From Aplysia californica (taxonomy: Eukaryota), in assembly GCF_000002075.1 (NCBI RefSeq), contig NW_004797276.1:1915972-1979971 (forward strand): a DNA stretch of 64,000 nt, written 5' to 3'. Positions 7,245-63,603 of the stretch are shown here, piece after piece. Numbering within the stretch: position 1 is the stretch's first letter; each line of letters opens with the position of its first letter. Both the position numbers and the translations under genes were made by a program. Under the pieces are notes generated by a model. That model was not told where the DNA came from and ran no database searches. It saw nothing but the letters and a program-made list of their open reading frames with translations.

Positions 7245-7395
7245 AAAAAAAAAGATGACAGAACTTTGCTAGAGAGCAGGAAAGGAGGTGAAAGTAGACA
7301 ATTTTAGAGAAGAAAATTTTTCAGTTGCTTCCTGGATTCAAACCGAGACCTTTGAATGAGAGGCAACACCTTAACCTCTAGGCCACGAGAGCCAC
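7245..7395 (-). mobile_element. tRNA-derived SINE, head fragment
   Basis: Reverse complement matches the head of the 26399 and 41072 SINE copies (A/B boxes, ttttcttctctaaaattgt). Confidence 0.8.
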
Positions 7396-10090: not shown

Positions 10091-10219
10091 ATGCACTTCA
10101 CAACCCTGGTTGCTGCGGTGTGTGCTACAGTCTGTGGAGCCTATTCACAGTCCATCGTGTTTGATGACACTCCTGGAATGGGGCGCCAGTTTGATGGAAT
10201 AGGGGGTCTAAGCGCAGGT
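10091..10219 (+). CDS. GALC: GALC copy 1 coding exon 1 (signal peptide, [10 protein letters not shown])
   Basis: Acceptor ttaacag ends at 10061, ATG at 10091, donor GGT|gtacgt. Confidence 0.9.
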
Positions 10220-13200
10220 GTACGTATTTGTATAGTCATCAATGCTAGTCTGGTAGACCTAATGGTTTTTAAGAGGAGAGGAGAAGTTATTTATGTAGTC
10301 TATGTCTCAAATCTTCATCGCTATTATTATGTGTTTCTGTGGAAACACTGGGACAGCAATTTTTTGGGAAATTGTTGACTTAGACATGCTCTCTATTACC
10401 CTTTCCCTGAGTCTTTTGTGTGAACAATGTCAAAATCATTTGGTGCCTAATCTATTTTATTTGCTAGTTTTGTTTATTGGCTATTGACGCAATCACGAAA
10501 AGCTGAGATAATATGGTCATATCATTGCCTTTGAGATAAGACCAGCTAACCCACACAATGTTCCTTCTCTTGACAAATCGGTAGCAAATTATCAATTTCA
10601 TATGCTCAGTCAAAGTCTTGTCTGAATTTTTATTAGAAATACTTCTAAAATATTACAAATAAAGCCAAACAGCCTGCTGGTTGGCAGGTTGCTGCGTGAT
10701 GAAACCAAACAAGTTTTTTGCTTCTCTTGTAAAATTTGCTCCTCTGGGGTTAGCCATTCTTATCATAAGGGCAACGATTTATATATTATTCAGAAAAAAA
10801 GTAAAGTTCCTTTTTTGATAATATATATCTTTTAGAAATATGTGCATCTAAGCTTTATTATATTAGTAAAGTGTCACGCATGTTTTATTTTGTGAGAATA
10901 AGCAACTACTTAATGATCAAGGGATTTTACTAACACTTGTGTCTCTCTTTTTTTTCTACTTTTTAGGCTTCATCTAAGCTACTTGTCAACTATCCACAAG
11001 AACAACGTGACCAGATTCTTGATTATCTATTCAAGGTATTTTTACTAGTGTTACTTCCTGCAGCTGTTGCTGAAGCAAAGAGATAAATAATAGTCAAATA
11101 GCATCCCTGTACTGTTACACAAGAAAGTCTTGAAGAAAGTAAGTCTCTAAGCCTGTAGGTTTGATAAACCTATTGCGAACAGATTGCATTGTCCAACCTT
11201 GTTTGCTTTTTCTCGTATTATTGTAGCTTTTTCTCATTGGAAAAATATCACTTATATGAATGTATTATCCGTTTTAATTGTATAATGATTTGGGTGGTCC
11301 AGCATTATTTCTTCCTTTATATCAGTGTACTGTTCATACAGATGAATATGATAGTTATTGTGCCTACTCACCATGAAATTAGCTTTGTTTCTTCACCTCA
11401 TTACTCTGATTCCTTTTCTTTTCTTTACTTTATGAATCCATCTGTTACTTTGTGCCTCTCCCAATAGAGTGCCAGACAGGCAGGATTCGAAACATGCCTT
11501 TAACAGGAGATCTTACACAATAACTAATAACTTGCAAAAGACACACTCATATATATATATTATATATATTATTATATGCCTTCTATGAGTTTCACCTTCT
11601 CAGGAGAATATATTGAGAGGTTAGTACTGTCCCAGAAACTCTGTTTTCAACACTGTATTTACATCTAAAAGTACATGATCTTGAAATCTACAGCCAAATT
11701 TTGGAGCTTCTCTTCACATTCTTAAAGTAGAAATTGGAGGAGATGTCCAGAGTACTGGTAAGCTCATCATAAATATCATCTTAGTTGTTTATCATTCGGA
11801 AAAAAATATGATTTAAAAAATCATTCATGTACATGAATTTGTGTTAGACTGGCATGTGTAAAATATGTGGTCTTACTTTCATGCTCCAAAAACTATTTCT
11901 TATGTAACTCACAAGTGCACCTTCAAACAATGTTAAATTCACATTTAGTGATCTTAATCTGCCCTCTGGATGTACTGTATATCTAATTCTGTTTTTAATC
12001 ATGAACGCTTGTGTCCATGTTCTTCTGTCTCTGATATTTGTTTTACTGATGATTTTTTTTATTGACATGGGAAAAAAATGTTTATTTTTTTAAAACAAGG
12101 TTTAGCATCTCTCATCCTTTAGTTTGTTCAGTGATTGTTCATCTTCTATCTTCTCATAATTCAGATCAAAATCAGTACAGAGACCATTATCTTTCTGTTA
12201 TGACAATGATTGTTTTGACACATTTATTTTATGTTGCATGGTCAGATGGCACCGAGGCATCCCATATGCACAACAGTTGGGAGGAAAATTACCAGAGAGG
12301 CTATGAATGGTGGCTCATGAAAGAAGCCAAAAAGGTTTGTATATTTGATAATTAAAACAAAGCTCTCAAAATTGTTTTGAGTTTGAGTTAATTTGAAATA
12401 AAAAAGTAGATGAATGTTTACTTTACAGAAGCTGCTTTGATGTATGGCTGCAAGAATAAACATATTAAAGTCTCTGTCATTGTCAGCTATGTGCAATTTG
12501 AGCTGCTAAGCTTCTATTCCTTGATCTCTGGATCATGACAAAAATGCCAAGTGTCGAAAACATTTACGTGGTTCATGGACAGGAACTGTTGTACCAAAGT
12601 TATATTTGTAGTACTTTTTAAATGTTTGCAAGTGTCTGAAAGTTTTGGTTTTTGAACATGTTTCATCAATGTTTCAGAGAAATCCCAACATTAAACTCTA
12701 TGGCTTACCTTGGGGTTTTCCGGGCTGGATTGGACAAGGTACCCAATCCCCGTATGTCAACATCAGTATGACAGCCGACTACATTGTCAGGTGGATCAAT
12801 GGTGCTAAAGTGTACCATAATTTAACCATTGATTACGTCGGGGTGAGTTTACTTTAATCACATTAGGTTTTGAGTACGCTGTATTGAATAACATACCTTG
12901 AGAACAAGTTAACGAGAGATACACCAGCTTCTAGCAGCATGAGGAAGTGGGTAATCTTAGTTTGATTATATATTTATTACAAAAAGGGAAATATGTGGTA
13001 GTGTAACATTTTACCGAAGTGATTCACTTATGTACAGACGCTCTATTTGTATTATATTGGTCACTAACTATTATGGAAACATAGATTTCTTGCAATAAAT
13101 GATTGAAAAGACTGTCCGTAAATGGTGAAGTTTTGACTGCATATATTTGGGTTTTATGACTCTGGGTTTTTTTTTATGCCAGTGCTTGTTATCTGCACTG

Positions 13201-16200
13201 AAATGTTTTAGCATTTGTGGGCTTAATTGTATTATGTTTTGTTTTTTTCTTTTTCCTTCCAGATCTGGAACGAACGGACATATGATATCGGTTACATAAA
13301 GGTAAATGATTAAGTTTTTATCCTTTGATAATTTGTGTTCAATTGTCTGTTTCATCCAAATAAGCTGAAGTAAGTGATTTCTATCCTTTGATGTAGTTGT
13401 CTTATAATTGATAAAAATGTAATAATATTTTCACCATTTGTAGTTGGAACTCACGAAGCAGTGCTTGGTGTATTTATCTGTTGTAATACTTTCTACAGGC
13501 ACTACGCGCGACCTTGGATTCACGAGGATTCCAAAACACACTTGTTATTGCTGCTGATGAAAAGTGGGAGATTGCAAGTGACATTCAGGCAGATCCTGCA
13601 CTGGCCAAAATAGTACATGCTATTGGGTATGTAGAATGCAAATAGGCATTTCCCTTGTACTCTTTGAAAGAGGCATGAAAGTGAAAAGAACGTCAAAGGT
13701 GTCTTTCTGTTACTCATCGTTCACAGAATTTATAATTACTTAAAATCTTTTTGTGTTTTGTCAAACTATCTTTCCTACTCCATTTTGTTTTTACTATATA
13801 ATATTTGTTTTATACCAGAGTGGCATTTATGATCCTCCATGCTACTTGTAAGTAATATAAGTGAGCTGCCTGTTAAAAGAATTAAACATTTTTCATTGCT
13901 AGCCATTTTGAATTCAAAGTCATCTCTGTCATTATGAAAATTCTGCGTGGTTTCTTGACAGGTGTCACTACCCAGGCACTCTTTCTGATCCGGATGCTGT
14001 AAACACAGGGAAACAATTGTGGGCCTCGGAAGATTATAGCTCTTTCAATGATGACGTTGGAGGAGGATGCTGGGCGCGGGTAACTGTTTTGTTCGTCATA
14101 GCTTAGATGTTTTCACGTGTTTTGTGTGTTGCTGTTTTCTTGGTGACGATAGAAAAGAGCATGATTCTTTAAATGGCAGGTACTGGCACTTGATTGTGGT
14201 TGGAGGTTTGGAGGAGGGTACTATATGCACTCACGTGTACTGAACAAGTGGACTCACATCTGAGCATTGATTGTTTCACATGTCTCATGCTTTCTTATGA
14301 TCAATGCAAATGTCTAGCCCCCTCCGGAAAGAAGTAAATAAAAGCAGTATAAAGACATACTGAATGTCTTCAACCCAGCATAACAATGGCAAACAGGTTA
14401 CATCAGACATTTTTTTGTATTTGTAAGTCGCACCTCATGTTTGTTACCAAATTGCGACGATCTCTAATCTTCTTTACCCTTGATTTCTGTTTCTTCCAAC
14501 TAGACAGAATAATTTTTTGTTAAAGGATTTGTTATGCAGCTATGAAAGCTGACTTGTAATGTCCTTTAAGTTTTTTCCTTGTGCTGATAGAGCTGTTCAA
14601 TCCTTTTCTTTTGAAACTTGAAAGTCAAGTTTCTATATGTATGCATAGTCAATGAAAGGGGAGGGGCTGATTTGTTTGTTGATAGCCTTACTATTTTATT
14701 GCAACTTATTTTATTCCCGTACTTGATAAACAGCTATTCACGTATTTATCTAAGTGATATGCATCATTACTTTTTGCTCTTCAGCTCAGTTGTAGGCTGT
14801 TCCTGTCATTGTCGTTAAGTCTTGGGTACAAATAGTTATATAGCATCAGTTTTTTGCTATTTCTCTCTACAAGTGACAGATAATAGAATGAGACTTTGAA
14901 CCTGTGTCCTTACATTCCTATAGTCTGGGCAACACCAAAAGGACAACTTATCGACCTCATTACACAAAATGTAATATGCGGTTCCCATAGGGGGATCAGG
15001 TCGAGTCAGGTCAGTTTGCTAGTCAGATTGAGGGCGCAAAGTGATTACCATGGCACAAGTCGAGTGTGCCCAACTCATCGCCTCAAAAACAAAAGCGTGT
15101 GTTCTCAGGTGACGATTCGGCCCGACCCGACTCGACCGGATCCCATCTGCAATGGGCTCCCGGTATAAGTGGCGAGTTGCTCTGATTTTTTGCATGTGCC
15201 CCTAAAAATCTCGATTTTCGTGCCAATGCGTCAAACATAAAGATGTCTTTTTTATAATTATAATCATTAGTATTTAATTGCAGTCGGGGGGCGGGGGGTG
15301 TCTTTGATTAAAACAAGAAAGGTAGTTCAGCGTTAGTTGGTTTTTTTATTTTTTATTTATCTTATTTTCTTCTTTTGAATTGACTGTGTTTTGCAGCAAG
15401 ACTGAGTAGTTGTCAGTCCAGTGGTTAGTATGGTGACAGTGTGTTTATTTAGATTGACTAATTGCAATATATATGCTATGTGGGAAATTTTTTGCATATC
15501 CTCACAGTCTTTTGCTGTCGCTTTTCTCATTAATCAGCGTGGTTAGATTAATTAATTTACAAACCCTAAAACTACTAAACTATTTCTACAAAGAAGGCGA
15601 TCAAGGTCGTCTCTTTTATTCTATTTAAAAATTCAGAAAAAAAGACAAGACATGCATTAGAACTATCCAGGACTATGCTGCTCGGATGGATCCAAGAAGA
15701 TGAAAATCCAGAAGAAAAATAACTAATACAAAGACGCATAACAATTCCAGTTATACTTCTTTCATATTCAGGTGGCTTGAAAATGTATGTGTAAAGGGGG
15801 GAGGCACCCTCTGCCTATGAACCTGCACTTGGGGATGGGCAGTGACATGCCCATTAGTGCTCTGCAAATTTCTGACTAACCCCTGCAACGACACCCTGTA
15901 TTGTTATGGTTTTAGAATGGTACTGTGCGTGCTATAAAAAGTGTGCGGAGTTGAGTATAATTAGACATCAATTAATAATGATCATAGACAATATCTCTTT
16001 ATATTTGTCGCATATGATCATAGACAATATCTCTTTATATTTGTCGCATATGCACAGGAATCAGGATTATTTAGGTCTTTTAAAATTCATAGGTGCATAC
16101 AAAAAATTAGAGCAAATTGCAACTTAGGTTCTGTGTAATGAGGTCGATAAGTTGTCCATTTGGTGCTGCCCAGATTATAGTAGCTGCTTTTTAAAAAATT

Positions 16201-16560
16201 TATCAGTCATGCTCCTTCATGATAACTGGTTATATCATAAAGTGGCTGTCTTCTTGCACTACATATTTTGGAGTGAGATATACTGAATAAGCTGTTTGTC
16301 AATCATATTTTAAAAATATTTCTGAGTTTTGATTGACGCCTGTACTACTTAAATGTTGCTGTAAAAGAAAAGTAAGACAACGTTTTGCTTGATAAAATTC
16401 AATATCCATTGTCAGTCACCAGAGAAAGAAGAATAAAAAATGATATGATTCTTACCTTGCAAGCTTAAGAAGAATAAAGAATGATATGATTCTTACCTTG
16501 CAAGCTTAAGTACTTCTAGAAGATGTGAATCAATTCTTGGCATCTGTAATAGATGTCTTT

Positions 16561-16624
<64 letters not shown>

Positions 16625-19600
16625 TTCAACGTTGAGAAGCTGTTATTGATCCAGCAACCTTGAGAATAAATAAAATGGATGGAATGGCAAAAATTCACCC
16701 CTATCTGTCAAGGGGATGAATCTTGTGGGACGGATACTTTTTCTGTACCTTTTCATCCTGTTCAGTTACATGTATCTATTGTTTTTACTCTTTTACATTA
16801 TAGACTTCCAAAATTGGTGGCTTTCTTTTTTCTGTAAACATTCTATTGATAGGTGTCACACCCACCCCCCTCTCCTTCCACAAGGACCAGCAAAATCAAT
16901 AAATCCAGCAAAAATCTTTTGCTTTTCCCTGTGCCCTTTCATCTGCATGAAAACAGTATTGTGATCTCGATTTTCTTAAAGTCACCTTTATGATTTTGAC
17001 AATTGTAAAGTAGAAGTCAAAGGTAGAATACTTCTTTAGAAAAAGGAAAGTATGTTTGTTTTTATCAGCTGTTTGCAGAACATGCTGAAAAGTCTGAAAG
17101 TGGTATTGATGATGGTTTTACAGATCTATTTACATCTGTGCCTTTCCTCTTATACCCTGTGCAGACCTGGATCATCTGTTTCATGTTTACTCTCTTCATT
17201 ATCGATTTCCTCGTGCCCTCAGCATTTACCGTAGACTCAAGCTGCATTCTATTAGCGTTATATTATGTATTTAGTTGATTTCCTGATTTTATTTAATGAC
17301 ATCGTGATTTTTATTCCTCAGATTCTAAATCAGAATTATGTCAATGGCTTGATGACAGCGTAAGTAATTTCTTTTTCCTGGTACAGTGGAACTTGGATTC
17401 AACGAAGTCGTCGGGCCTGGCCTTAAATTTTGTTGAATCTAAGTGTTCGTTATAGAAAATACGAGGTTTTGTGTAGATAATTACAGACATTGAGCAAGTA
17501 GTGCATAATGTCGACTTTCTACATAAAAAATATGTTGGTTTCAAATGAGAGGCATTTTCGTTTCTTGATATTTAAACAAATGCGAGAAAATTCCAGAAAA
17601 ATACAACGAACTATACCAAACATACACCGTGCAAAAGGGTCGATTAGTTCAAATGCATGCCTGTGTGATCTATCGTCTACAGCATATTGTTTTCCGAGCA
17701 AGTTATGTTGCTGTGTAGAGCGTAGCATATGGCAGCATGTAATCCCACAGTCCAGCGCACAAGACATCACATAGATCTATGTCAAGACTAACTTATCATT
17801 GTAATATTGATCAGCCAGGGAAAATAATAATGTAACGCGTTTGCATCTCTTCTGATGTTCCACGCCCTTACCACTTCTACTCCCTCACCCAGCTCACACA
17901 CACATACACAGTCGCACGTCACATGTGTGCTTGTCTCTTGGCCGCCTGTCCGACCCCGACACATGCTAAGACATGTGTGCATGCTAACAACGTGTGTGTT
18001 GGTACGAAAGAAGGGCGCTGATTAGTCACATAAGGCAGTTCACCTTGCAAGAGACTTCGTTGAATCTGAGCTTGCTCATTGATGTGTTCTGTGAATCCAA
18101 GTTATTTTTATTGAGTTTTATTAATTAAAAAAAACACACCAGGGGAATCCAACTCTTTTCGTTGAATCCTAATTTTCGTTGAATCCGAGTTCGTTATATG
18201 TGTACTGGAAGCAACTGAAATTGTAATTTTATTCTGTTTCTTTGGAAGTCATGACTCTGTATATTTGTCTTGTACTCTTCCTTCAGGCTTGGTTTTTATA
18301 TGTGATTTGACATGTCCAATATCAGAACAGTCAGAGCCATTTCATAAAATAATTCATCTGTGGACAGCACCATTTCATGGAGCTTGATAGCCAGCTACTA
18401 CGACAACTTGCCGTTCTATGGGGATGGTTTGATGACAGCTGTTGAACCATGGTCAGGCAACTATGTCGTGGAGACACCCATCTGGGTTTCAGGTGAGAAA
18501 CCATTGGACAGTATCTGAATGGTCTATAAGATTTTTTACATGAATTCAGGAGATATATATTGATATGGATACAGATACAATGATTATTGTTTCCTTTCAT
18601 TTTTTATTGCTAATTTCTTGGCAGCTTTCCTTTTATTCTGATCAATTATAAAGAATCTTTAGATAGATAATCTATCTTGATGTAGATGTAAATATCAATG
18701 AAACTGTCCCAATGTCTATTTTTTAAAACATTAAATTGGACTTTGCATCCGGCTCATAAATGATTAGGTTCTCTTCTAGCGTTTTGTTCTGTGCTTTCAA
18801 GAAGTGTTTTTATTTTATTTACACGTGTACTCTGTGATATTTATGGATTTCTGTTTTGCTTTTCAGCCAAGCTACTGTTAATTACAAACAGGGAATCGAT
18901 ATGAATAGTCATTCTATAATGAAAAATATGGAGAGTTTTATGTGTACTTCCTTTTCATTTAGTGAGGAACTTAAATAATAACTATCTTTGTTTATAAATA
19001 TCATTTTGCTGAAATATTCAATTGAACACAAAGTGTTTCTATTTGATTTACACCAGAATCTTTAGAGATGATTTTTTTTTCATTTTTGCAGCACATACAA
19101 CCCAGTTTGCTTTTATTGGCTGGAACTATCTCAAGCATGACTCCGGAGTTGGGAAACTGCCAAAGGGAGGTTCTTACGTGGGTCTTGTCAATCCAACAGG
19201 GACAGAACTTACCATTGTCATTGAAACTATGGTAAATAACCTAGCTCATGTAAATTATATAGTTAGTTTCTTTATGCTGAGCTTAAGAGTGCTTATATGT
19301 GTAAGCTTTGTCTTTGTTCTTGAGGTTTAAGATTTCATAACAATAGGAATTTGTTTGCAAACATAAAAGTTATTATTTTGTCCTGGATGTCAATGAAAAC
19401 AGCACTTGTCTTGGAAAATCTTAAACTTTCTCCTACACATGTGTAAGGTCATGGATTTGTGAACACTGAAACTACAGTCAAACCTGCCCTGACGGCCACC
19501 TCTATAGGACGGCCACCTGTACAAACGGCCACTTTCCATTTCCCCCCTTGCGTTTTTTCTCTATAATTTAACTGTGTAAAACGGGCACCTGTCCAACGCG

Positions 19601-22600
19601 GCCGCGGCCACCATATTTTAACACAAAACCCCTATTACACTAAGCAATAACACCTGTCTTAGACGCCACCTTAGTGACTCCGACCCATGTGTTTGTTTTA
19701 ACATGGCACTCGGTCTTCCTCGTCTCATACATTTAGTTTTATTGTCACTCTTGCGCAAAATCAGCAACAAAATAAAAATAACAAACAAAATACAAACCAA
19801 CAACAACAAAAACAAGAAATGCGGCTATTTTCGATTGAGACTTCAGAAGGGAATGGTTTGTTTTCTTCCTCTTGATCAGTCCTGCCTAAGATGGCCACCT
19901 GTCTTCTACGGCCACTTTTCTCCTCGACAATGGGTGGCCGTCTTACACAGGTTTGACTGTACTTTCCAGTAGAAGTATGAAGTATTACAAAGTAAAATGG
20001 AAAAATGACTCGAGACGTATTGTTCTAGTTCATTATTGTGTAATAGCAGCTTGGGTTTTTTTTCCCCCGAAAGTCTCAGAATCTGTTTCTGTGCTGTTTC
20101 AATTTATTCCTTTTTTTTTACAGAAAATGCATTTTCCTGTTAAATTTTTGTTCATTTTGCTATCTTATTTTTCACTTGATGACTTTAACTTTGCATTATG
20201 CCTTTTTTCGGGATGATTGTTCTGGGTGTTTTTGCGCAACAATTTCCACTTTGTGTCTTTGCTTTTTCTTGTGTGAAAATCGTCTTCACTTAATTCGTTT
20301 TTCAAATTTCCGGAAAACTGAATTCTTTAGCAACAATGTTAAAGGTAAAAATATTGTGATTTTTAAATAATTTATAATCGTTAAAATAGTCAAAATATCA
20401 TTGTAATAATTTTAGTATTAATAATAATCAATAATCATCGTAGTAATAATAATATAGTGACAATAAATAATTTACTTATAAAAATGATGTTTATATGAGT
20501 CGTAGTAGCAATGATATTGGTAATGCTTAAACTATGTCTGTTTTATGGAGCACCGTGATAATTTTATGTTAATGAGGTTTTTTAAAACTCATTTTTATTA
20601 AAGAGTATGTCAAGGGCTATCTTACTGTTCAAGGTTTTGCTGCTTGTTTGTCTTTGACAGACCCATAATCATTCACTGTGTGTTCGACCACCACTGCCAG
20701 CCTACAACGTTGAACCCCAGGTTGTTACTGTTTCATTGGCAGGAAAATTCGTAAGTGTTTTTTAGAATAAGACATAGTATAAGTTGTGCTCACCTTGGAA
20801 AGTATGTTAGGGCAACCAACTATTGTTAAATTGTTTGCTTGGTATGTGAATAACAAACAGGGCATGGTGCCTCTTAATGTACTGATATATCGTCGTGATC
20901 ATGATACGATCAGATCTACAAAACTTTCGATTTTGGTTTTTTTCACGAAATCTCTTCTACAAGACATGTTTCGACATATTAAGACATATTAAGCTAATTA
21001 AAAATGTGTATTCAAATAAGCAACCAAAAGTGGACTTATAAAATTCTATAACAATCAAATTTATAATTCTGCCGTCCTTTTAAAAAATCAGTTTTTATCC
21101 TTTTCCTGTAAAATTTACCTGATGTCACTTATTTGACATCACAACGGTGACAATATGTTGAATGAAGCAAGTACGTGCTTTTTGTGAAATAAGTATGTTA
21201 TAAAACTTTTGTTAATTCAGTACAAGTTTCGTTTTGTTGTGGTACCTTCCTTAGTTTTAGCAGCAAAGTTCTGAGATTTGAAAAGTTCTTGATAAGCCCA
21301 TATGCAGTACAGACATGTTTCATGCTTTTTTTTATATTCATTACGGTGGTACATTTCTTTTCAGTAATGCAATTATTCTAATTTCCCCCCACAGTCCAGC
21401 ATCACCGAAATGAATGTTTGGTACAGCAAACTCAGATTTGATGGTGCCAAGGACACCTTGTTTGAGAAAAGGGACCCAATTAAAGTAAGCGTTTTGTTCT
21501 TTGGAATATATGAGTGTGGTGAATGACAGAAGATGTTAATGGAGCAGTCATTGTAGATTTGTTGGAATTCTTTTCAGTGAGAAAGGGACATTGTTGTTGG
21601 ATATTGTTCCAAAGTGCATGCATATTCATGCACATGTTTTAGGTAGATCTACACGTTTTCTTGCCATGTTTCAAAATGTCATCATACTTCTTTTTTTTTT
21701 TTTCTTTTAAGGTCATATATGTTTATTTGAGAATGCTTGCCAATACCTTCATTATGAAACAGAGTTGTTCATGAGCCGATTCATCGGTACAGACTTTGAT
21801 GTGTTTTTGTTAAGAAGACTGTACGCTTGTCTGACTGGTCAGGTCTACGTGTTTATGTCAAGCCAGGAGAGGAAACTGATCAATGCCAACATTATATCTA
21901 TCAGAATAGCACGAAGTTCAGTAAAAAAAATAATTTTACCTTTGATGCTGTAGATATGCCTCTTTTTATCATGCCATTGGGCATTCATCATCTCCTCAAT
22001 GCTTTGTATACCTTCCCTCACAATGGCAGGTAATAGAAGTGGAAGGTTGTTATGTTTAACATCATGCTCCTTCCTCAGAAGAAATAAAAATTAAAGTGTT
22101 TGAAGAGTCCCATTCACATAATTTTATTATTTAAGACTAAAGAAACCACTCCCAACCATCCTGTGCTCAAAATTTTTATGTAGAGTATTTCAGGTGAGCG
22201 ACACTGAGTAGAGGGAGAGAACCGCGCTACTTAAACTTAAACCTTAAAAAAACCAACTTATTTATTGTCAAAATATCAGGTCAGACACAGTCGAACTGGC
22301 CCCAGTTTAGAAAAACTTCAATTGCCCCCAAACAAAGTCTACAAATCCTGAGGTGTGCCCCCTTCATGACTTTAATCATGGTAGTCATTTAGGAGTTGAT
22401 CTGGCTTCAATATTAGTAGAAATTGACAAGACAGTTTGTCTCGGAGCTTTAGAAAAGTACGCTTATTATTTTTATTATTGCTCTGTATCCGACCTGCCTC
22501 ATTACAAGACACCCAAATTTAACAAGACAAGTCTAACCTAACAATGGATACCTTGTATTTATCATCATTGTCATATTTTTTTCAGTTTGTCAATGGCAAG

Positions 22601-25600
22601 GCACAACTGAGCCTGGGCTTGGATGAGGTCATCACGCTCACGACTATGACCACTGGTCAGAAGGGTGCTTATCCTGAGCCTCCTCCTTCTCAGCCCTTCC
22701 CCCTCCCTTACACAGAGGACTTTGAAAGTAAGGATCATTTGCTCATTTTTCCTTGTGTCGCTGCTTCAACAAAAATGGATCGACTTTTTTATTGGGCTTT
22801 ACTCAGCTCCCAGCTGTGGTTTGGTTGTTTTTGTGGTTGGCTGTTGTTTTTATCCAATTACTAACACTTGTCTGACAGGCAGTATATGGTTCCATCACTT
22901 CCTATCCAAATTCAGATCTTGGTCCACATTGANNNNNNNNNNNNNNNNNNNNNNNNNNNNNNNNNNNNNNNNNNNNNNNNNNNNNNNNNNNNNNNNNNNN
23001 NNNNNNNNNNNNNNNNNNNNNNNNNNNNNNNNNNNNNNNNNNNNNNNNNNNNNNNNNNNNNNNNNNNNNNNNNNNNNNNNNNNNNAATTTCTTAGAGCAT
23101 CAAAATTATTTTTATGCCTGTTTTACCTTACCATTTGAAATCTTTATATAGCATCATATTCTGGCATTATTAACCAAGAAAACCTGGCTAATGCTTTCAT
23201 TACTCCAAAGTTGCAATGAAGCAGAATAGTCATCAAATTTGTGGGCATGTGCAAGCTAAATGTGTTTCATAACAGTTTGGTGAATTTTTACTAAAATTTA
23301 AGTACTTTTTGTCTTTTGAAATAATCTAAAATCTAGCAATGGCAGCCATGTAATGTACATAAGTAAACAAGTATATAACCAGATGTCAGAGAGATAAAAG
23401 ATTATGCCTAGATAAGGATTTGATGATATATTTGAGAAAAGGTTTAAGCCTTGAGTTTGAGGTCAGATAGGCTTTTCTGGGCACTGTGTTGTGCAAACCA
23501 TGTAGCATTTGATTTTTACGTACAATTAGTTCTAGCATGAAAACACAAATAACTACTCCCAACCCAAATTTTGGAGTCTTTTTGATTTGGTACAGAGTAA
23601 AACAAGGACTTACTAATGCTATTCCTTCTAATGCTTTCTCTACCTTATGAAAAGAAAGAAGAAACAAAAAAAAGTGCCAGAGATTTGCAGTTATTGATGA
23701 CCCAGGAGAAATTACTGATTGCAAGGGACGAACAGTCTTTCTTTTTTTGTGTTGACTTTGCACAATATTATTTCATTTAAATATAACTTATTCTTTAGTA
23801 TAAGAATGTAAAAAGAATTGGAAATTATCAAATACTATTGTCATCCATTTCCACATGGAAGGTTACAAACCACCACAGGAACCCCCCAATTTGGCTCAGT
23901 AGTTTGGTGTATATGAAGTGACTGAATTGCCTGGGCCACATAGTCATGTCAATAGCGAAAAAGTCATTTTCGAAAATAAGAATGAACTACTAATGCATAG
24001 AAACAGATGACTCTGGATGACTCATCAAATTCCAAAAGTTCTCAAAAAAGAACGAAATGGGTAAAAAGTGAGAAAAAAAAGAGCTCGCATAGAAGACCTG
24101 GTGTACAGTAAACCTAGTTATCTATACATAATCTGTGCATGCATACCTTTCTGACTGATTTGATACAGCTAATCAGGTTGGCAGCATATTCATAAAAATG
24201 TTTTAAAAGTGTGGATTCTTTTGCGTTCATCTGGAAACATCAAGAAAATGTGAGACTAATTAATTTGAGACGATAGAATTTCAGCTCTTGGAATTAAAGT
24301 TTGTTTCTTTTACTCCTTCCGAAATGTGAAACTTGACTGGAGGGCTAAATGATGATTTTTTCCCCTCCTGGAACAGGAAAATATACTTACATGCTTTAAA
24401 TAAGCTTTTCTGAATTGTAAATGTTCATACTAAGTTGTATTCATGTTCACTCTTTGGACAAGTTAAACCTCTTTACAAGTTGGTTATTATAATGTTTCTC
24501 AGCTACTTGGAGACTAGTCATCTTTTAACAGATTGCAGCAGTAATCCTCATCTAGGTGAAAGGAGTAAAACTTGTCTAGAAATATATGTTTTTCTTTCTT
24601 GATGAAATCAAAAAAGGTATGAGGTAATACCTGCTGATGGGTGTTGGTTTTCAAAAGTTGTTTGTTTAGAATAAATCAATATGTTTTTCACGTCTCTTTC
24701 TGTTGATGTAATAGGGGACAATACTCTTCGCTGTCTTCCCATCATATCTGCAACACACTTTCAGCAATACCAAAGCTTCATGAATACAATCTTATTGATC
24801 ATAGGCTTCTCACTGTATGAAGAACCCTTCAATCTTGCCCAACAAAGTGGAGCATATGAAATCCTTTCTACAAATAACAACAAGTTCGCCCGGCAAATGA
24901 CAATAATGGAGCCAATTCTCTGGAGCAAATTCGGGGGAGTCTGTAAAACTGTCAATGTCATTGGCAGTACTGACTGGTAAGATGCTGCCAGGCTCAGGCC
25001 AGTGTTCTGTTCACCTTCCAACATATGTATGCTTGTGTGCGCCATGACCCAGGCTTGAAAAAAATTAGAAACAGATGCTAACATGTTGCTAATCAGCTTC
25101 AGTTTGTTTTTTAACTTCTGCTCATAGGGGTTTACCAATAGTAGCTTGAGACTTATTACATCAGTTTAGTTGAGAGAGAAAACCTTGAACATAGTCTTTG
25201 GATCGTTTGGGGCGTTTTTTATTCTTAAAATCTCATGGAATTTTTCAGGAAAATCTGACCATACTAATTTTGTTCGATTGAAAGTAATCCAAATTTGAAT
25301 GACTACTTTGGTCTCTAAGAGTTTGGGTTTTTTTGTTTGTTTGTTTTTTCAATTATCTTTCTCTTTGATACATATGTACTTTAAAAACTGCCCTAATGTT
25401 GAAGCAATAGAAGGCCTACAGTAATACAATTGGACAGCATAAATGAATGATTTGCACTAAGTCTAATGAACAGAAAATTATAAACTGCTCACAGAAATGC
25501 ATTTATAAATGTCTCACTCACTCTTTGAAAAAGGGAATCTAAAAAAACCGTTTGCTTGAGACCTGCCACTATCTAGATGACAGAAATAGTGAGGCAACAG

Positions 25601-28600
25601 TTTAGAACATGAGTTGTGTTTGCTTTGCCAAAGATCAGCCTTCCCTTTTTGCACATTCAAGTTTTTCCTTGTTTATTTCCAAGAAACACAAATGCCACCA
25701 CAGCCATTGATTTCGATTTAAAAAGAGATGTTTTTTTAAAAAGAATCAAATGTGAGCACATTTTGATTAAATCATAGTGCCTCCAACAAAGATACACTTC
25801 TGCTGTTGACAAGTCAAATCTTCTGAAAGGAATGTCGAATTTCAAGTCTCTGTCTTCACCCAGTGGGACTGTTTTTACAGATTTCAATAGACCATTAGGT
25901 GGATTGTTATAGAGAGTTCCAAGAAATCATGTTCTTAAGTGTCTGTGACTGAAGAAGAATTTTCACTGTCGCTAACTCAACTATATCAAACCCCTCCCTT
26001 ACCTTATTTAGGCCATATGTGGCCTAAGTAAGCACTCCCTATATCAAATGCATGACTCATGGAAACATTCGCTACACTTATTGTATGACTTCCTACAGGG
26101 ATATTTGATATAAAATACTTGTTATTTTACCTCGCAGTTGGAGTTGGCATATATCTAATATTTTGCTTTATTTTTTTCCCTTCCTTCAATTTTACTTACT
26201 GTTCAGAATTACTTTTTTCTAATGTTAAATTTTCAGAGACCTGCATCTGCAGCGGATTTTGCTTAAATTGAACAACTAATAGAAAAAAATGTTTCAAGTA
26301 ATATAATATATCTCTTTTTGTATCTCCTTAACTTAATTTGTTTAATAATGTATATATACCCTGTATTGTTGAAAATCAAGTGATTAAAAAGATGATTTGG
26401 GGGTTCTCGTGGTCGAGAGGTTACAGTGTTCGACTCTCATTCAATAGGTCCCGGGTTCGAATTCGGATAGAGACGTAACATTTTCTTCTCTAAAATTGTT
26501 CTCCTTTCACCTTCTTTCCTGCTGTCTAACAATATTTTGTTGTCTGCCTTTGTCTCAACGTCCTGCGCCCACCCCCTCACCTCCTTTGCCCCCTCCTCCA
26601 GGCTCCTAACTCTTTCTGCTGCCTTTCTACTGCTACTCCTTGGCTCCTTCTTACTGCTGTCTTTCAGCCACAACCCTGATCATATGGTAAATTATAAGAT
26701 CTAACACCTACCTGGCCTTCTCGGATAAGGGCGAAAAATCTCAAAGGTAGCGTGTGCAAGTTGCGCATGTTAATGACGCTTGGTGGTCCAAAATCGATAA
26801 GAATAGGTCTCGCCGCCAACCGAACAAAATTTTAACATTTCCTACCAACTGAAAATGTTAATTGTGTCCCACGTGCTCATATGACCTTATGCAGTTGCGA
26901 GCACCAAAAAACACTTACCCAAAAAAAATAAAAAATTTCTGTTTACTTTTGTATCTTTTGTTTTTGTAGCACTGATATTATATTAGACTAGATGAACTAT
27001 ATTTCTATGACAGAGGATATATTCACCTGTCATTTGAGCTTACAATTTTGTTTTGAAGAAAGGTCTCGAAAAAAAAGGTATATTCTATTTTGGTGGTGTC
27101 AGACGATGTAAGTGCCTAATGATGTATATATCTTGAAGAATACGAGAAAAATAGCTCTAGTTCTTTATTATTTGCTCCATCTATTCTTGGCACTAGTACC
27201 TTTCAGATTCATTTTTTTCCTTAAGTCGATTTATTCCTATCACCAGGACTGACATCTATGTGGCAGTAGACTTCCAACTGCCTGTTATAAACGGGTCACT
27301 CGGTGCCTTTGTGGCTGCACGGGTGGACCGGGGAGGTGTTGAGGCCTTTGCAGCTCATGGAATCTTCTTGTTTGTCTTCCCGGATAGGTACATTGTGACT
27401 AACGACTTTGGTAAGATTGACAACTATCCACCCTTTTCTTATTAAGAGATTATTGTTGTTTATGGTCAGGTGTAAAAAGAAAAATCCTCTTTTGCATTAT
27501 TCGACAATGCATGCCAACACTTGTTCTGGTTGTAAACCACATTGAGCATAGAGTAGAATGTGGGTATACGCTGTCTAAATACAACCATTATTATTATTAT
27601 TGTTATCATCCTTTTTATAATTATTATTATCACGTATTAACAAAGCTATTAAGCCAAGTATTGCGTAGATACAAGATTCCTTTTGCACTCGTTTTGTTTA
27701 AATGGGCTTCATTTTTACTTGTGTTTGTTGAAGAAACATGTCTCCCATTTCTAACAAGATATGAACTTTGGATTTTTGATAGCAGTGGTAGGAAATGGGG
27801 GAGAGAGGAGGTGTTTTTGCCAAAGTTGTTGGTAAACTTTTTTTTATTTCACCTCTTTGATAACTTTATAGCTCATTTAAGATGTGAAATGTTTAACAAC
27901 AAAAAGCCTTTTCTAATTTTTTTTAGCCCGTACAAAAACCCTCAAGAACGGGTCTCTGGTCTTCGAGACAGGAGAGTGGCACAGACTGGGTCTGCTGGTT
28001 CAGGTAAACCAATTTTTAGCTATACTGTGCGGGCTTCCAGTCAAAATCATAGTATTGGACCATTATAATTTTATGGGTATCTGAACAGAGAAGTTATCTG
28101 TGGAAGTTGAAATAGATGTCAAAATGGTTTGATATGACTGTAGGCCTATACATGCATGTACATTTTTATAAAGGGATGTGATATTTTAATATGAGGAGAT
28201 GTCGAGCCAACAGACTGAGCATAAGAGGGTGCTAATGTATACTGCAACATAACAATTTATTCAACCTTAAAAATCATCTTGCCAGTTTGTTTCTTTCTTT
28301 TCCATGTGGCCAGGGGATAAGACAAAGTGCATCATTATATCCAAAATTATCCCATCTGGGTCAATTAAAAACAAACTTCATTTTATTTTTGTCTTTGAAC
28401 TTGTTTTTCTCTCTGTGCTCAAACATTTGCTTGATTATTTCTCTCATCAGGATGGCAACGTTCAGGGAAGCTTTGATAAGAAAATTCTGTTCAACATGCC
28501 TGTCCCAGCTCTGCCCGTGAGTGGTTTTGCCGCTATCGGCACAGACACATTTGGACTGGCAGATTTCGATAACCTACAGCTGACTGGACCTTCCGAAGGG

Positions 28601-28663
28601 AGCAAGATAATGTCGAAGCATTTACACTCCAAGTCTTTGTACTTTGAGAAAGAACATCACTAA
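10091..28663 (+). CDS. GALC: Galactocerebrosidase-like (GH59) copy 1, complete, 18 coding exons, 2052 nt / 683 aa
   Basis: Join 10091-10219,10967-11035,11694-11757,12246-12334,12678-12842,13263-13301,13499-13626,13962-14079,17322-17359,18368-18492,19092-19231,20661-20750,21395-21484,22586-22727,24805-24976,27247-27410,27927-28003,28451-28663. All introns are GT-AG and the frame stays open. Signal peptide plus GALC motifs [61 protein letters not shown] (acid/base Glu), WASED (nucleophile Glu), GCWARILNQNY, EPWSG, CVRP, GFAAIGT..FDN. Confidence 0.95.
10967..11035 (+). CDS. GALC: GALC copy 1 exon 2 ([23 protein letters not shown])
   Basis: TACTAAC branch point, pyrimidine tract, AG; donor AAG|gtattt; 69 nt. 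Confidence 0.95.
11694..11757 (+). CDS. GALC: GALC copy 1 exon 3 ([21 protein letters not shown])
   Basis: cag| ... G|gtaagc; 64 nt. Confidence 0.95.
12246..12334 (+). CDS. GALC: GALC copy 1 exon 4 ([30 protein letters not shown])
   Basis: cag| ... AAG|gtttgt; 89 nt. Confidence 0.95.
12678..12842 (+). CDS. GALC: GALC copy 1 exon 5 ([17 protein letters not shown]...IDYVG)
   Basis: tttcag| ... GGG|gtgagt; 165 nt. Confidence 0.95.
13263..13301 (+). CDS. GALC: GALC copy 1 exon 6 ([13 protein letters not shown], catalytic acid/base Glu)
   Basis: Pyrimidine tract + cag| ... AAG|gtaaat; 39 nt. Confidence 0.95.
13499..13626 (+). CDS. GALC: GALC copy 1 exon 7 ([10 protein letters not shown]...IVHAIG)
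   Basis: tacag| ... GG|gtatgt; 128 nt. Confidence 0.93.
13962..14079 (+). CDS. GALC: GALC copy 1 exon 8 (CHYPGT...[21 protein letters not shown], nucleophile Glu)
   Basis: gacag| ... CGG|gtaact; 118 nt. Confidence 0.95.
14921..16177. mobile_element. Non-autonomous DNA transposon in copy 1 intron 8
   Basis: ~50 bp TIRs (tagtctgggcaacaccaaaaggacaacttatcgacctcattacaca / tgtgtaatgaggtcgataagttgtccatttggtgctgcccagatta), TA duplication; empty site ccTAgt near 50309 in copy 2. Confidence 0.88.
15978..16049 (+). repeat. 36-bp tandem duplication (2 copies)
   Basis: atgatcatagacaatatctctttatatttgtcgcat x2. Confidence 0.9.
16430..16510 (+). repeat. ~41-bp tandem duplication (2 copies)
   Basis: agaataaa(a/g)aatgatatgattcttaccttgcaagcttaag x2; single copy in paralog near 50624. 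Confidence 0.85.
16564..16621. repeat. (TA)n microsatellite
   Basis: Direct. Confidence 0.95.
17322..17359 (+). CDS. GALC: GALC copy 1 exon 9 ([13 protein letters not shown])
   Basis: cctcag| ... GC|gtaagt; 38 nt. Confidence 0.93.
17384..18204. mobile_element. Tc1/pogo-type MITE in copy 1 intron 9
   Basis: ta|cagtggaacttggattcaacgaa left end; repeated ttcgttgaatcc subterminal motifs at the decayed right end; absent from copy 2. Confidence 0.7.
18368..18492 (+). CDS. GALC: GALC copy 1 exon 10 ([11 protein letters not shown]...[16 protein letters not shown])
   Basis: gacag| ... G|gtgaga; 125 nt. Confidence 0.95.
19092..19231 (+). CDS. GALC: GALC copy 1 exon 11 (AHTTQF...GGSYV...LTIVIETM)
   Basis: tgcag| ... 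ATG|gtaaat; 140 nt. Confidence 0.95.
19475..19959. mobile_element. Tc1/mariner-type MITE (GGCCAC subterminal repeats) in copy 1 intron 11
   Basis: TA|CAGTCAAACCTG ... CAGGTTTGACTG|TA; absent at the paralogous site near 54118. Confidence 0.92.
20661..20750 (+). CDS. GALC: GALC copy 1 exon 12 ([13 protein letters not shown]...GKF)
   Basis: gacag| ... TTC|gtaagt; 90 nt. Confidence 0.95.
21395..21484 (+). CDS. GALC: GALC copy 1 exon 13 ([13 protein letters not shown]...DPIK)
   Basis: cacag| ... AAA|gtaagc; 90 nt. Confidence 0.93.
22586..22727 (+). CDS. GALC: GALC copy 1 exon 14 (FVNG...[22 protein letters not shown])
   Basis: ttcag| ... A|gtaagg (phase 1); 142 nt. Confidence 0.95.
23862..23954 (+). 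pseudogene. Dead remnant of alternative exon 15a in GALC copy 1
   Basis: Near-identical to the 5' half of 58192-58381, but with CAG>TAG at 23900-23902. The 3' half and the donor are deleted; homology jumps to ~58735 of copy 2. Confidence 0.9.
24805..24976 (+). CDS. GALC: GALC copy 1 exon 15b, the only surviving variant ([18 protein letters not shown]...[22 protein letters not shown])
   Basis: catag| ... TG|gtaaga; 172 nt, phase 1-2. Confidence 0.93.
26399..26935 (+). mobile_element. Full-length tRNA-derived SINE
   Basis: A box GTGGTCGAGAGG, B box GGTTCGAATTC, body, tail tatgaccttatgcagttgcgagc, A-rich end; family members at 7245, 39808 and 2060. Confidence 0.88.
27247..27410 (+). CDS. GALC: GALC copy 1 exon 16 (TDIYVAVDF...[10 protein letters not shown]...GIFLFVF)
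   Basis: accag| ... G|gtaaga; 164 nt. Confidence 0.93.
27927..28003 (+). CDS. GALC: GALC copy 1 exon 17 (ARTKTLKNG...[11 protein letters not shown])
   Basis: ctaat branch point, poly-T, tag| ... CAG|gtaaac; 77 nt. Confidence 0.9.
28451..28663 (+). CDS. GALC: GALC copy 1 terminal exon 18 (DGNVQG...[18 protein letters not shown]...EKEHH*)
   Basis: atcag| ... TAA at 28661-28663. Confidence 0.93.
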   Translation, partial: DGNVQGSFDKKILFNMPVPALPVSGFAAIGTDTFGLADFDNLQLTGPSEGSKIMSKHLHSKSLYFEKEHH

Positions 28664-41706: not shown

Positions 41707-41844
41707 ATGGCAATGCACTTCACAACTCTGGTTGCTGTGGTGTGTGCTACAGTCTGTGGAGCCTATTCACAGTCCATTGTGTTTGATGACGCTCCTGGAA
41801 TGGGGCGCCAGTTTGATGGAATAGGAGGTCTAAGTGGCGGAGGT
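41707..41844 (+). CDS. GALC: GALC copy 2 coding exon 1 (MAMHF...[11 protein letters not shown])
   Basis: Acceptor ends at 41683; donor GGT|gtaagt. Confidence 0.93.
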
Positions 41845-42408
41845 GTAAGTATTTTTATAGTCTTCAATGCTAGTCTGATAGACCTAATGGTTTTTAAGAG
41901 GAGAGGAGAAGTTATTTATGTAGCCTATATCTCAAATCTTCCTAGCTATTAATGTTTTTGTGGAAACACTGGGACAGCAATTTTTAGGAAATGTGTGACT
42001 TAGACATGCTCTCAATGGGAGTCAATGATCCTATGCCTGAGTCTATATTCTGTAGTGTAAACAATGTCAAAATCATTTGGCACATAATCTTTTTTATTTA
42101 CTAGTACTATTTATTGGCTATTGCTGCAATCAGGAAAAGCTGAGAGAATATGGTCATATCATTGCCTTTGAAGTAAGACGGCTTACCCACACAATGTCAT
42201 TTCTTTTTGATTTGACAAATCATTTGGAAATTATCTATATGCTTAGTCAAAGTCTTATCTGACTTTTGATTAGAAATACTTCTAAAATATTACAAATACA
42301 GCCAAACAACCTACTGGTCGTCAGGTTGCTGCGTGATGAAACCGTAAAAGTTTTTTGCTTCTGTAGAATTTACTCCGATGGGGCTAGCCATTCTTATCAC
42401 AAGGGCAA

Positions 42409-42493
<85 letters not shown>

Positions 42494-45400
42494 GAGAAAA
42501 AAAGTAAAGGACCATTTTTGATAAAATGTATCTTTTAGAAAACTGTGTATCTAAGCTTTATTATATTAGTAAAGTGTCACTCATCTTGTTTTTTGTGAGA
42601 ATAAGCAACTATTTAACAGTCAAGTGATTTTATTAACCTTTGCATCTTTCTCTTTTTTTTTCTTCTCCTTTTTAGGCTACATCAAAGCTACTTGTCAACT
42701 ACCCACAAGAACAACGTGACCAGATTCTTGATTATCTGTTCAAGGTATTTTTAAAACTATTGCTACTTCCTGTATTGTCCCCATGGAACAAATTGACATT
42801 TTACAACTATTGCTGGAGCAAAATGATAAATAAGAGTCAAATGGTATTCCTATACTGTTACACATGTAAGTCTTTAAGAAAGTAAGTCTCTAAGCCTGTA
42901 GGTTTGATAAAACTTGTTGCCAACAAACCAGATTCCATTGTCTAATCTTTTTTTGCCTTTACTTGTGGCATTGAAGCCTTGAGATACACCCACTTGAATC
43001 CCCCCTCCCTCCCCCCCATGTCTTTATCTATAATTCTCTACAGAGCTTTTTCTCTTTGAAAAAAAGTCACTGATATAAATGTATATTATATATATATCCA
43101 TTGTTTTACAAATGATTTAGGTGGTCCAGCATTATTTCCTCCTTTTTATCAGTCTACTGTTCATATAGATGAATATATCAGTTATCGTGCCTACTCAGCA
43201 TTAAATCAACTTTGTTTCTTCACCTCATCATTCTAATTTGATTAGTTTTCTATCATTTTTAAATCCACCTGTTACTTTGTGCCTCTCCTTGTAGTGTCAG
43301 GCAGACGAGAGTCAAAACATTCCTTTAACAGAAGATCTTACACGCTAACTCACCAAAGACCGCTTTGCGTATTGATATTAATTGATATATATATATATAT
43401 ACACCTATATTCTCAGGAGAATATATTGAGAGGTTAGTACTGTTACTGAAATTCTGTTATCAGCCCTGTATTTACTTTGATTGTATCATTTGTGACAAAA
43501 AGTACATTATTTTGAACTCTACAGCCAAATTTTGGAGCTTCTCTTCACATTCTTAAAGTAGAAATTGGAGGAGATGTCCAGAGTACTGGTAAGCTCATCA
43601 TAAATGTTATCTTAGTTGCTTATCATTCAGATATAAAGATGATTTTTTTTTTATTGATGTGGTTGAATTTGTGTTAGATTGGCATGTGTAAAATATATGG
43701 TAATACTTACATGTTACATACACTGCTTATTATTTAAGATACAAATGAACCTTCAAACACAGTCTTAAATTCACAGTTACCTATCTTTAGCTGCCTTTCG
43801 AATGTACAGTCGAACCTAGTGTGTAAAACAGCCTCCCATTGTCAAAGAAAAAAGTGGCCGTTTAACACAGGTGGCTGTCTTAGGGAGGACTGATCAAAAT
43901 GATGAAAGACACCGTTTCCTTCTGAGGTCTAAGCCGGGGCTGATCTTAGGCTTAGGACTGCCGTAAGGCTAATTCCAAAGGGCTATTATTGTTTTCTTTT
44001 GAAAAAAAAAAAGGGGGGGGGGAGGTGTAAAAAAGGGGGGAGAGGTGTTGTTGTTATTTTTTGGTTTGTTTTTTTGGTTAGCTTCTGTTTTTGTTGCTGA
44101 TTTTGTGTAAGTTAAAAATAAACGAAAAAAGCCGATGAAGACTGAGTGAAGACCGGACCGGGTGTCATGGTAAAACAAACACTGGATTGCCACCACTCTG
44201 AGAACGAGCGACACTTCTGTCGCATGTTCACGTAAACATCCATTGTTACTTTGTTACAGATAAGGTAAACAAAACAGTGATCACATAGGATTTGTGTATG
44301 AGTTGTGGGTGGGGCTTCAAGGATATGACGGATCCCACGCTTCGCTCACCAGCATTTGAAAATTTATCGTTACCCATCCATTGGTCAACTTTGGTAAACT
44401 TTCATTGGAGGGACTAACAATAACGACAGGTGAATGGATTATCATAACAAAACGGCCTGTGTGCCGTATTATCATCAGAAGGACTGTCAGACTGGTTCCC
44501 CATCAGGTCTGGGGTAAGACAAGGGTGTGTTCTTTCTCCGCTTCTCTTCATCGCTTACATGGATAAAATCACGAAAGCAGCAAATGACAACATCACTGAA
44601 CTGAACAAGCTTCTATTTGCTGATGACCAGAGTATATTAGGTACAGATGAAGAGGAATTACAAAAACACACCCCAAAACTAAATGAGGAATGTAAACACC
44701 TAAACATGAAAATCTCCATCTCAAAAACAGAGTCATGTCAGCAGAAACCCAGGGAAACTCAACATTCTTATTGATGGAACACAACTCCAACAAGTAGAGG
44801 AATTTAAATATTTGGAAAGGATCTTCACACAAGATGGGCATATAGGGTCTAGGCCTACTGCATCCTTGTGATCCGTCACCCACTGGCTGCGCCAGTGAAG
44901 AGACAGACGGCGAGGATGGTTTATGCTCATTGCACCGCTTGCGGTTGTGTCTCCTTGGAGCAAGCAGGATCTTTGCACCAAAGTTATCTTTGTCACTGTA
45001 GAGAAATCAAGGCATCGTTCTTACCGCACAAGAAGAAAGGTGCATGAAACTGCTCTTCGCAGCACCAATTTGGTGCAAGCTAAAAATTTGATCCAAGTTT
45101 CCGCGAACCTATCTACTACACTAGTAGAGTCTACGGTAACTCAATGAAGAATGGGTATCGAAACTGTTGTCTCCCTCTATTGTGTAGCACGTCCTGGTGC
45201 TGCTCGAAGTACTTAAAAATCTTTAAATCTTCTCAGATTGTAGCATAGTGAGTTGTTAGTATTGTTTCACTTTATTGCAGCTTTTATGCGGTTTCATCTA
45301 GAAACAGTTGTAAATACATGTATCGATATATGAAGATTACGGGATATCCTGCAGATTCTAGTTGACTTTCTCTAGAAATCTTAAAATAGTAGCTACTAAG

Positions 45401-63400: not shown

Positions 63401-63517
63401 TAAGAATATGGACTGCTGATTGCAAAAAGGACCTGATTTTAGTCAGAAATAAAATCGAACATGTGCGGGGCTACTTTGGTCTCTAGGAGCTTTTTTTTTC
63501 CATTATCTTTCTCTTTG

Positions 63518-63603
<86 letters not shown>

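Follow-up and report, generated by a model that had tools for sequence, protein, structure and literature searches.

The closest described system to the genes analysed here is vertebrate galactocerebrosidase (GALC; mouse structures PDB 3zr5, 4ccc and 5nxb) of glycoside hydrolase family GH59. According to passages of PMC4445328, the pocket residues W135, G48, T93, S261 and R380 bind the 3-, 4- and 6-hydroxyl groups of the sugar (the role of G48 being taken from one sentence), and W291, which lies near C4, sets the galactose specificity. In simulations described in part of PMC13187500, the loop-closing Ser68 hydrogen-bonds to Ser62 and to Asn308, the Asn that follows Trp291. Here, a stretch of 64,000 nucleotides of Aplysia californica DNA (the window; contig NW_004797276.1, positions 1,915,972 to 1,979,971 of the forward strand) was analysed. 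Of three galactocerebrosidase (GH59) genes arranged in tandem, it contains two, both on the + strand; the third copy lies beyond the window edge. With somewhat better than even confidence, copy 1 was judged to be a young, intact GH59 duplicate whose pocket has been rebuilt to a recurrent form, SAGASS plus Trp-Ser, likely shifting acceptance at the C3/C4 edge of the sugar.

Copy 1 shares the three-domain fold and both catalytic Glu with vertebrate GALC, 9 of 12 pocket residues are identical to those of human GALC (Phe stands for Tyr319 in copies 1 and 2), and two rim Cys are missing from copy 1 and vertebrates alike. Unlike vertebrate GALC, copy 1 has a Gly48 loop that is one residue shorter and carries Ala, Ser for Asn after Trp291 and Ser for Thr262, and its genome holds at least five paralogous genes, copy 1 included. 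With GH59 proteins of bacteria, protists and other invertebrates that are labelled short-loop in this study it shares an identical two-part signature; unlike these at large, copy 1 had an ancestor with the long loop, and its short state is a recent acquisition. Copies 2 and 3, in contrast, have kept SGGGATS, WN and both Cys, and copy 2 also has three forms of exon 15.

10091..28663, + strand: copy 1, GH59/GALC-like gene; 18 coding exons, 683 amino acids, signal-peptide-like N-terminus, intact open reading frame (ORF), all introns GT-AG
41707..64000, + strand: copy 2, sister gene with the ancestral pocket; exons 1-15 inside the window, exons 16-18 just past its edge

The copy 1 model is identical, letter for letter, to the stored A. 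californica RefSeq galactocerebrosidase P0118, while P0002 and P0117 represent copy 2 with exon 15b and exon 15a (RefSeq isoforms X2 and X1). Copy 3 (P0119; contig positions about 1992654-2020964) has the ancestral pocket and exon 15b only; the RefSeq accessions are XP_012936313.2 for copy 1, XP_005089503/4 for copy 2 and XP_005089505 for copy 3. The 18-exon layout is common to all three, and copies 2 and 3 are 95% and 92% identical to copy 1. Along the coding path of copy 1 the frame and splice sites are unbroken. Its Pfam scores (405 bits for the GH59 TIM barrel, 148 for the central domain and 145 for the C-terminal lectin domain) are all above the curated cut-offs, and the structure predicted for it (predicted local distance difference test score 91) has its best Foldseek matches in 3zr5, 5nxb and 4ccc (root-mean-square deviation 1.6-1.7, 50% identity). 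Further GH59 paralogues are located on contigs C20 and C41, one on each.

Pocket changes in copy 1

The differences between copies 1 and 2 at the pocket are given below together with the catalytic residues.

10208..10219, + strand: end of exon 1; one-codon deletion plus Gly>Ala, SGGG loop to SAG, at the equivalent of pocket Gly48 (mouse) or Gly64 (human)
10970..10972, + strand: exon 2, Thr>Ser, completing SAGASS
13272-13274, + strand: acid/base Glu, intact, equivalent of mouse E182
13278-13280, + strand: Pro>Thr (P181T), WNERT versus WNERP, a variable column
14029-14031, + strand: nucleophile Glu, intact, equivalent of mouse E258; Ser261 equivalent retained
14041-14043, + strand: Thr>Ser at the Thr262/Thr278 equivalent, SEDYSS versus SEDYST
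18378..18383, + strand: Trp291 equivalent kept, followed by Asn>Ser (Asn308 equivalent), SWSL versus SWNL, the second half of the signature
24805..24976, + strand: exon 15b; Trp524 equivalent kept (24921), adjoining Cys>Ser (24924), new Cys (24942)
27338..27340, + strand: exon 16, Cys>Val (C567V) by two base changes, at the pocket position of human Ile586

A preliminary description of exons 1-15, made from the same letters, had proposed that copy 1 carries derived changes clustered at active-site motifs with both catalytic Glu intact and is neofunctionalising. The five motif differences that it named were all found in place, the fifth at 24912-24944 (22 protein letters, not shown), and the difference between LSAG-ASS and LSGGG-ATS is real and spans the exon 1/2 junction (copy 1 10208-10219 and 10967-10975). 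Likewise, both Glu are intact (13272 and 14029) and exons 3, 4, 9 and 12 show zero amino-acid differences between the two copies. The list was selective, since of the 23 substitutions in exons 1-15 it named nine, with the one-codon gap in addition; the clustering is above chance nonetheless. The remaining 14 substitutions are divided into seven copy-2 changes and seven copy-1 changes away from the pocket. As pocket evidence P181T, V516I, F517L and S525C add little, being at highly variable columns, and P181T was discarded because Pro occurs in only 50 of 138 homologues. The strongest evidence lies outside that list, namely C567V, in an exon beyond the range described before, and the recurrence of the SAG/W-S state across GH59.

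The polarity of the changes, with copy 2 as the ancestral state, was borne out by copy 3 and by 115-128 of 138 homologues, which agree at G44, G45, T48, T258 and N288. The duplication order is ((1,2),3): at synonymous sites copy 3 is the outlier, with 50 changes versus 25 in copy 1 and 22 in copy 2, and at the intron ends it has 416 differences versus 185 and 151 (3300 columns kept, poorly aligned ends dropped).

For the analysis of clustering, an independent list of 12 pocket positions was taken from part of PMC13187500 (Gly64, Thr109, Trp151, Asn197, Glu198, Glu274, Ser277, Trp307, Tyr319, Arg396, Trp540 and Ile586), all of which map by one constant offset through the platypus row; clustering here means proximity in sequence to published pocket residues and not distance in three dimensions. 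Copy 1 equals copy 2 at 10 of the 12 positions. Two positions are altered themselves: Gly64 (to Ala, with the adjoining codon deleted), so that the SGGG loop with Gly48 of canonical galactosylceramidase (GALC, EC 3.2.1.46) is absent and SAG stands instead, and Ile586 (Cys to Val). Residues beside Ser277, Trp307 and Trp540 have changed as well. Retained are the equivalents of Thr93, Trp135, Asn181, Ser261, Trp291, Arg380 and Trp524, by the same offset. Seven of 25 copy-1 changes (residues 21-659) are located within one residue of the 12 positions, where 1.33 would be expected under a uniform distribution (p 2e-4), in agreement with the clustering claimed before. When neighbouring changes were merged, 5 of 18 copy-1 events were pocket-adjacent (p 0.005). 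Such changes number 0 of 8 in copy 2 and 2 of 29 in copy 3, and the comparison of 7/25 for copy 1 with 2/37 for copies 2 and 3 gave p 0.024. Moreover, conserved columns were hit eight times in copy 1, and six of these hits are at most one residue from a pocket position, a zone that holds just 27 of the 298 conserved columns (p 8e-6).

Of 134 rows, 123 have the two rim Cys, C519 and C567, 9 (mostly vertebrates) have neither and 2 have a single one, a co-occurrence that suggests a disulfide. Copy 1 has lost the pocket Cys of exon 16 along with its likely disulfide partner at 24924.

The short-loop state across GH59

Among animal-type rows with the loop, the short SAG form was found in 10 of 139: copy 1, two Pomacea isoforms, Batillaria, Haliotis rufescens, Patella vulgata, Lottia, Bradybaena, the sponge Corticium and P0062. 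A maximum-likelihood tree was calculated from 35 rows, hand-picked from at most 141 as the short-loop rows and near relatives, with the tested columns excluded. On this tree the loop label requires eight changes, six of them forced by strong branches; a single origin occurred in 0 of 200 bootstrap trees, and a single clade of short-loop rows was rejected (approximately unbiased test, p 6e-48). As read from these alignments, the short loop thus arose six to eight times among the sampled animal-type homologues. Ser, Ala or Cys follows Trp291 in 5 of 8 other short-loop rows versus 6 of 128 long-loop animal-type rows.

Distant GH59 domains were aligned with a hidden Markov model, and 136 of 193 rows were complete (57 incomplete rows dropped), with 66 short, 69 long and one other loop. 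Here 52 of the 66 short-loop domains have Ser or Ala after the Trp, against 6 of the 69 with a long loop. Copy 1 has a 10-residue loop of the SAGASS type, and exactly this motif is present in 45 of the 66 distant short loops. In a scan of 313 columns for ties to the short loop (uncorrected), only position 72 ranked ahead of position 288.

Since this signature is common across GH59, copy 1 has reproduced a two-part family-wide state by a deletion and three substitutions in three exons. None of the six loci found in the Aplysia genome holds another short-loop paralogue, and therefore no donor for gene conversion was seen. For six of the eight other short-loop rows a long-loop paralogue is present in the sample, either from the same species or, for P0062 and P0170, as a metagenome pair. 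Parallels extend beyond the signature: P0062 has ILWS at the Trp524 loop, Haliotis P0059 has lost both rim Cys and Patella P0076 has Thr258>Ser. One Pomacea gene has a SAGAT loop with the Asn retained.

P0062 (short-loop) and P0170 (long-loop) are animal-like GH59 proteins of about 530 amino acids on metagenome contigs of equal lengths, hence probably side by side and intronless. In a sacoglossan-rich GH59 clade (P0013, P0020, P0028, P0029 and P0172) the pocket is remodelled otherwise, with SEDYCQK, WD, and CVWD for Arg380. Bacterial loci with the SAG pattern were considered as a clue to the sugar and set aside, as they had been chosen by that pattern and lacked a long-loop control; among their neighbours (77 of 186 ORFs scanned, hand-picked) were five GH29 fucosidase-like ORFs at four loci, nine GH2/35/42 ORFs at eight loci and three sulfatases.

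In the literature searched, with subscription papers and curated enzyme databases outside the search, neither a characterised short-loop GH59 enzyme nor a named short-loop subfamily was found, nor any account of these Aplysia genes or of the two-state loop pattern. The portions of PMC5031207, PMC12008523, PMC6556953, PMC13712309, PMC7889515 and PMC12316802 that were available give no substrate for a short-loop GH59 enzyme.

Selection and competing explanations

Both parts of the signature are in contact with each other and border the C3/C4 side of the sugar, because Ser68 contacts Asn308 and W291 lies near C4; the assignment of Gly48 to O3/O4 is our reading of the published list of hydroxyl contacts. 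Deletion, Gly>Ala, Thr>Ser and Asn>Ser together would alter tolerance at O3/O4. Copy 1 would remain a retaining beta-glycosidase that still reads axial O4 and O6, and with Thr93, Ser261 and Arg380 in place it probably still recognises a galacto-configured sugar with O6. Pyruvate and aminoethylphosphonate on sea-hare glycolipids are described in PMC6994554, and the title of a reference cited there names 3-O-methylgalactose in glycolipids of A. kurodai. The likeliest new substrate would be an O3/O4-modified galactoside, e.g. 3-O-methyl or pyruvylated galactose of such glycolipids, and the second choice a looser galactose/glucose discrimination at C4. Algal galactosides such as monogalactosyldiacylglycerol are further candidate substrates. 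The aglycone side would be retuned in copy 1, which no longer has the Cys-Cys link predicted for the rim and is confined to exon 15b. Copy 2 retains the ancestral pocket and all three exon-15 forms. On sequence grounds, the change at the C3/C4 edge is best read as a selected shift.

Branch counts were obtained by parsimony from the three copies only, the C20 paralogue not being included; six codons were ambiguous, and codons 143, 245, 564 and 667 differ among all three copies. Nonsynonymous and synonymous changes numbered 27/25 in copy 1 and 8/22 in copy 2 (Fisher p 0.037); the amino-acid events differ (27 versus 8, binomial p 0.002) at equal synonymous rates. Overall, the nonsynonymous/synonymous rate ratio (dN/dS) was 0.31 in copy 1 versus 0.11 in copy 2, and outside the pocket it was 0.21-0.24 in copy 1, 0.10-0.11 in copy 2 and 0.19-0.20 in copy 3. 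Rates alone do not separate positive selection from local release.

Several observations weigh against a selected shift. The copy-1 pocket dN/dS of 1.2-1.65 is not significantly above 1 (P 0.14-0.31), and a number of the listed changes are conservative or fall at columns that vary. The Asn is retained in three of eight short-loop animal-type rows, the coupling of loop and Asn on phylogenetically independent pairs was three to four in the same and none in the opposite direction, of six (p 0.125), and the large tables of loop versus Asn count related, non-independent sequences. Since the two sites touch, their coupling can be mere compensation. Many bacterial enzymes with the short loop depart from copy 1 at the O6 site as well, being EDGPW-like there while copy 1 has Ser261/Arg380, and need not share its substrate. 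In two polyA RNA runs of one study, zero exon reads were found on exons 1-8 of copy 1. Any new substrate of copy 1 is put forward as a candidate. Of the preliminary description, the pocket clustering and the polarity are supported, and the neofunctionalisation that it proposed stays unproven, as the pocket dN/dS is not significantly above 1 and compensation could also yield the recurrence.

The main rival explanation, which was considered unlikely, is compensatory repacking: a spare copy survived the chance deletion of one codon from its Gly-rich loop, packing was regained through G>A, T>S and N>S, the enzyme remains a beta-galactosidase of largely unchanged specificity, and the recurrence reflects a single workable repair. 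The contact of the loop's closing Ser with the Asn in the simulations reported in part of PMC13187500 is in line with this, as are the Gly tract at the exon end, an easy target for deletion, the ten pocket positions that equal copy 2 and the Pomacea gene that has SAGAT and keeps Asn. Repacking does not account for the separate changes that affect Thr258 and both rim Cys, nor for the threefold excess of amino-acid change, and the long-loop form is usually retained alongside the short one, as if they differed from each other.

Still less probable is an explanation in which the sugar is the same and the aglycone or the working environment differs, so that the rim changes (both Cys, loss of 15a and 15c, one sequon lost and one gained) tune the enzyme to lipid versus soluble or dietary galactosides. 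The joint presence (123) or joint absence (9, mostly vertebrates) of C519 and C567 among 134 rows, the alignment of C567 with pocket Ile586 and the sequon loss and gain fit such a change; the loop and Asn changes, however, are at the sugar side and not at the rim, as judged from parts of PMC4445328 and PMC13187500.

Relaxed selection or an early pseudogene, with a redundant copy 1 drifting, is improbable to a further degree. It would account for the raised overall dN/dS (0.31 versus 0.11), the dead exon 15a and missing exon 15c of copy 1, the absence of RNA reads in two runs and a pocket dN/dS compatible with 1. Yet all 18 exons are intact at a synonymous divergence (dS) of 0.12 from the sister, the catalytic and most contact residues are unaltered, the changes match a specific family-wide signature, and copy 3 also lacks 15a and 15c and has the ancestral pocket. 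Instead of a dN/dS near 1 along the gene, as in a pseudogene, 0.21-0.24 was found outside the pocket. As a blanket alternative, which the preliminary description had allowed, relaxation therefore fits poorly, and it is also unlikely because the short SAGASS loop with Trp-Ser is a family-wide alternative state.

An assembly artefact or uncollapsed allele is scarcely credible: the C20 paralogue does have exons 2-13 doubled near-identically around a gap in the same assembly, but copies 1 and 2 have a dS of 0.122, introns that are 11-15% apart in 13 of 14 compared (20% in one) and different insertions, so that they are paralogues and not alleles, the copy 1 stretch is present in DNA runs of at least two studies, and run X5 has no alternative letters in exon 1 among the pieces listed.

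Exon 15, read data and the wider family

Exon 15 encodes a loop of the lectin domain that carries the pocket residue Trp524, and copy 2 has three versions of it.

58192..58381, + strand: exon 15a of copy 2, RefSeq isoform X1
59422..59593, + strand: exon 15b of copy 2, RefSeq isoform X2; orthologous to the sole intact exon 15 of copies 1 and 3
61314..61488, + strand: exon 15c of copy 2; frame open, bounded by AG/GT, in phase with 15a and 15b, absent from the two RefSeq isoforms listed for copy 2
23862..23955, + strand: dead remnant of exon 15a in copy 1, with an in-frame stop and the 3' half deleted

The three versions have the same phase; joining any two would shift the frame and joining all three would not, and they are likely mutually exclusive. 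Versions resembling b and c are present in the C20 paralogue too, some pulmonate proteins contain c-like sequences, and the isoforms from Pomacea diverge at this exon; the arrangement is old. Exons 15a and 15c were lost separately in copies 1 and 3, by different deletions, and 15b was kept. As copies 1 and 3 retain only 15b, the 15b isoform of copy 2 is the right comparator for copy 1, as had been suggested. In the lectin domain of copy 1 one N-glycosylation sequon is gone and one is new. Copy 1 also lacks the upstream ATG of the copy 2 and copy 3 models and starts two codons later (10085-10093 versus 41707-41715).

Among the runs listed for the copy 1 stretch there is no RNA run. In the RNA runs X21 and X22 the only reads were poly-T ones on introns, X18 yielded two pieces, both intronic, and X5 is probably DNA; X11, X13, X14 and X15 have intron-spanning contigs and no splice joints among the pieces listed. 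At window positions 12135-13958, X11, X13 and X14 each have a contig that deviates from copy 1 by about 2.5% and has 3-6 times the depth of neighbouring pieces, which is taken as a divergent allele or an extra partial copy in some individuals. The portion of PMC8195618 available has, among the matches listed, two GALC transcripts in sensory-neuron modules under accessions other than those of these copies; one appears, by accession offset, to be the C20 gene, and nothing firm results for copy 1.

The C20 paralogue (2337700-2362100) has exons 2-13 twice, near-identically, on both sides of a 100-N gap, probably an assembly duplication. On contig C41 (about 818700-835600), the fifth paralogue has the loop SGGS-ATS, another pocket variant, as in Biomphalaria P0055 and Bradybaena P0176. 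Mobile-element remains in the window are a reverse-transcriptase ORF fragment at 4876-6003 (+; Pfam RVT_1) and a DDE transposase fragment, scoring under the cut-off, at 34928-35383 (-). A high-copy interspersed repeat, matched by thousands of read contigs, occupies 26400-26920 in intron 15 of copy 1 and recurs at 7253-7393 and 40664-41072.

About half of the sampled distant GH59 domains (66 of 136) have the short-loop pocket, while knowledge of GH59 in the papers cited comes from vertebrate GALC. A broader proposal is held tentatively, at rather less than an even chance: GH59 has a two-state specificity switch, SGGGATS with Trp-Asn versus SAGASS with Trp-Ser, flipped repeatedly in duplicated animal genes, the short state may be an undescribed activity, e.g. 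on O3-methylated or otherwise C3/C4-modified galactose, and copy 1 would have been caught within about 5% synonymous divergence of its flip. Copies 1 and 2, 95% identical and on opposite sides of the loop divide, form a near-identical pair for testing the short state. Once known, its role would annotate hundreds of microbial enzymes, and a repeated multi-step convergence that includes an indel would become a clean case if the short state were understood. The finding also has a bearing on the loop/Asn contact affected by Krabbe variants, and the short state, once understood, may explain the turnover of methylated or pyruvylated glycans, or the digestion of algal galactosides, in molluscs.

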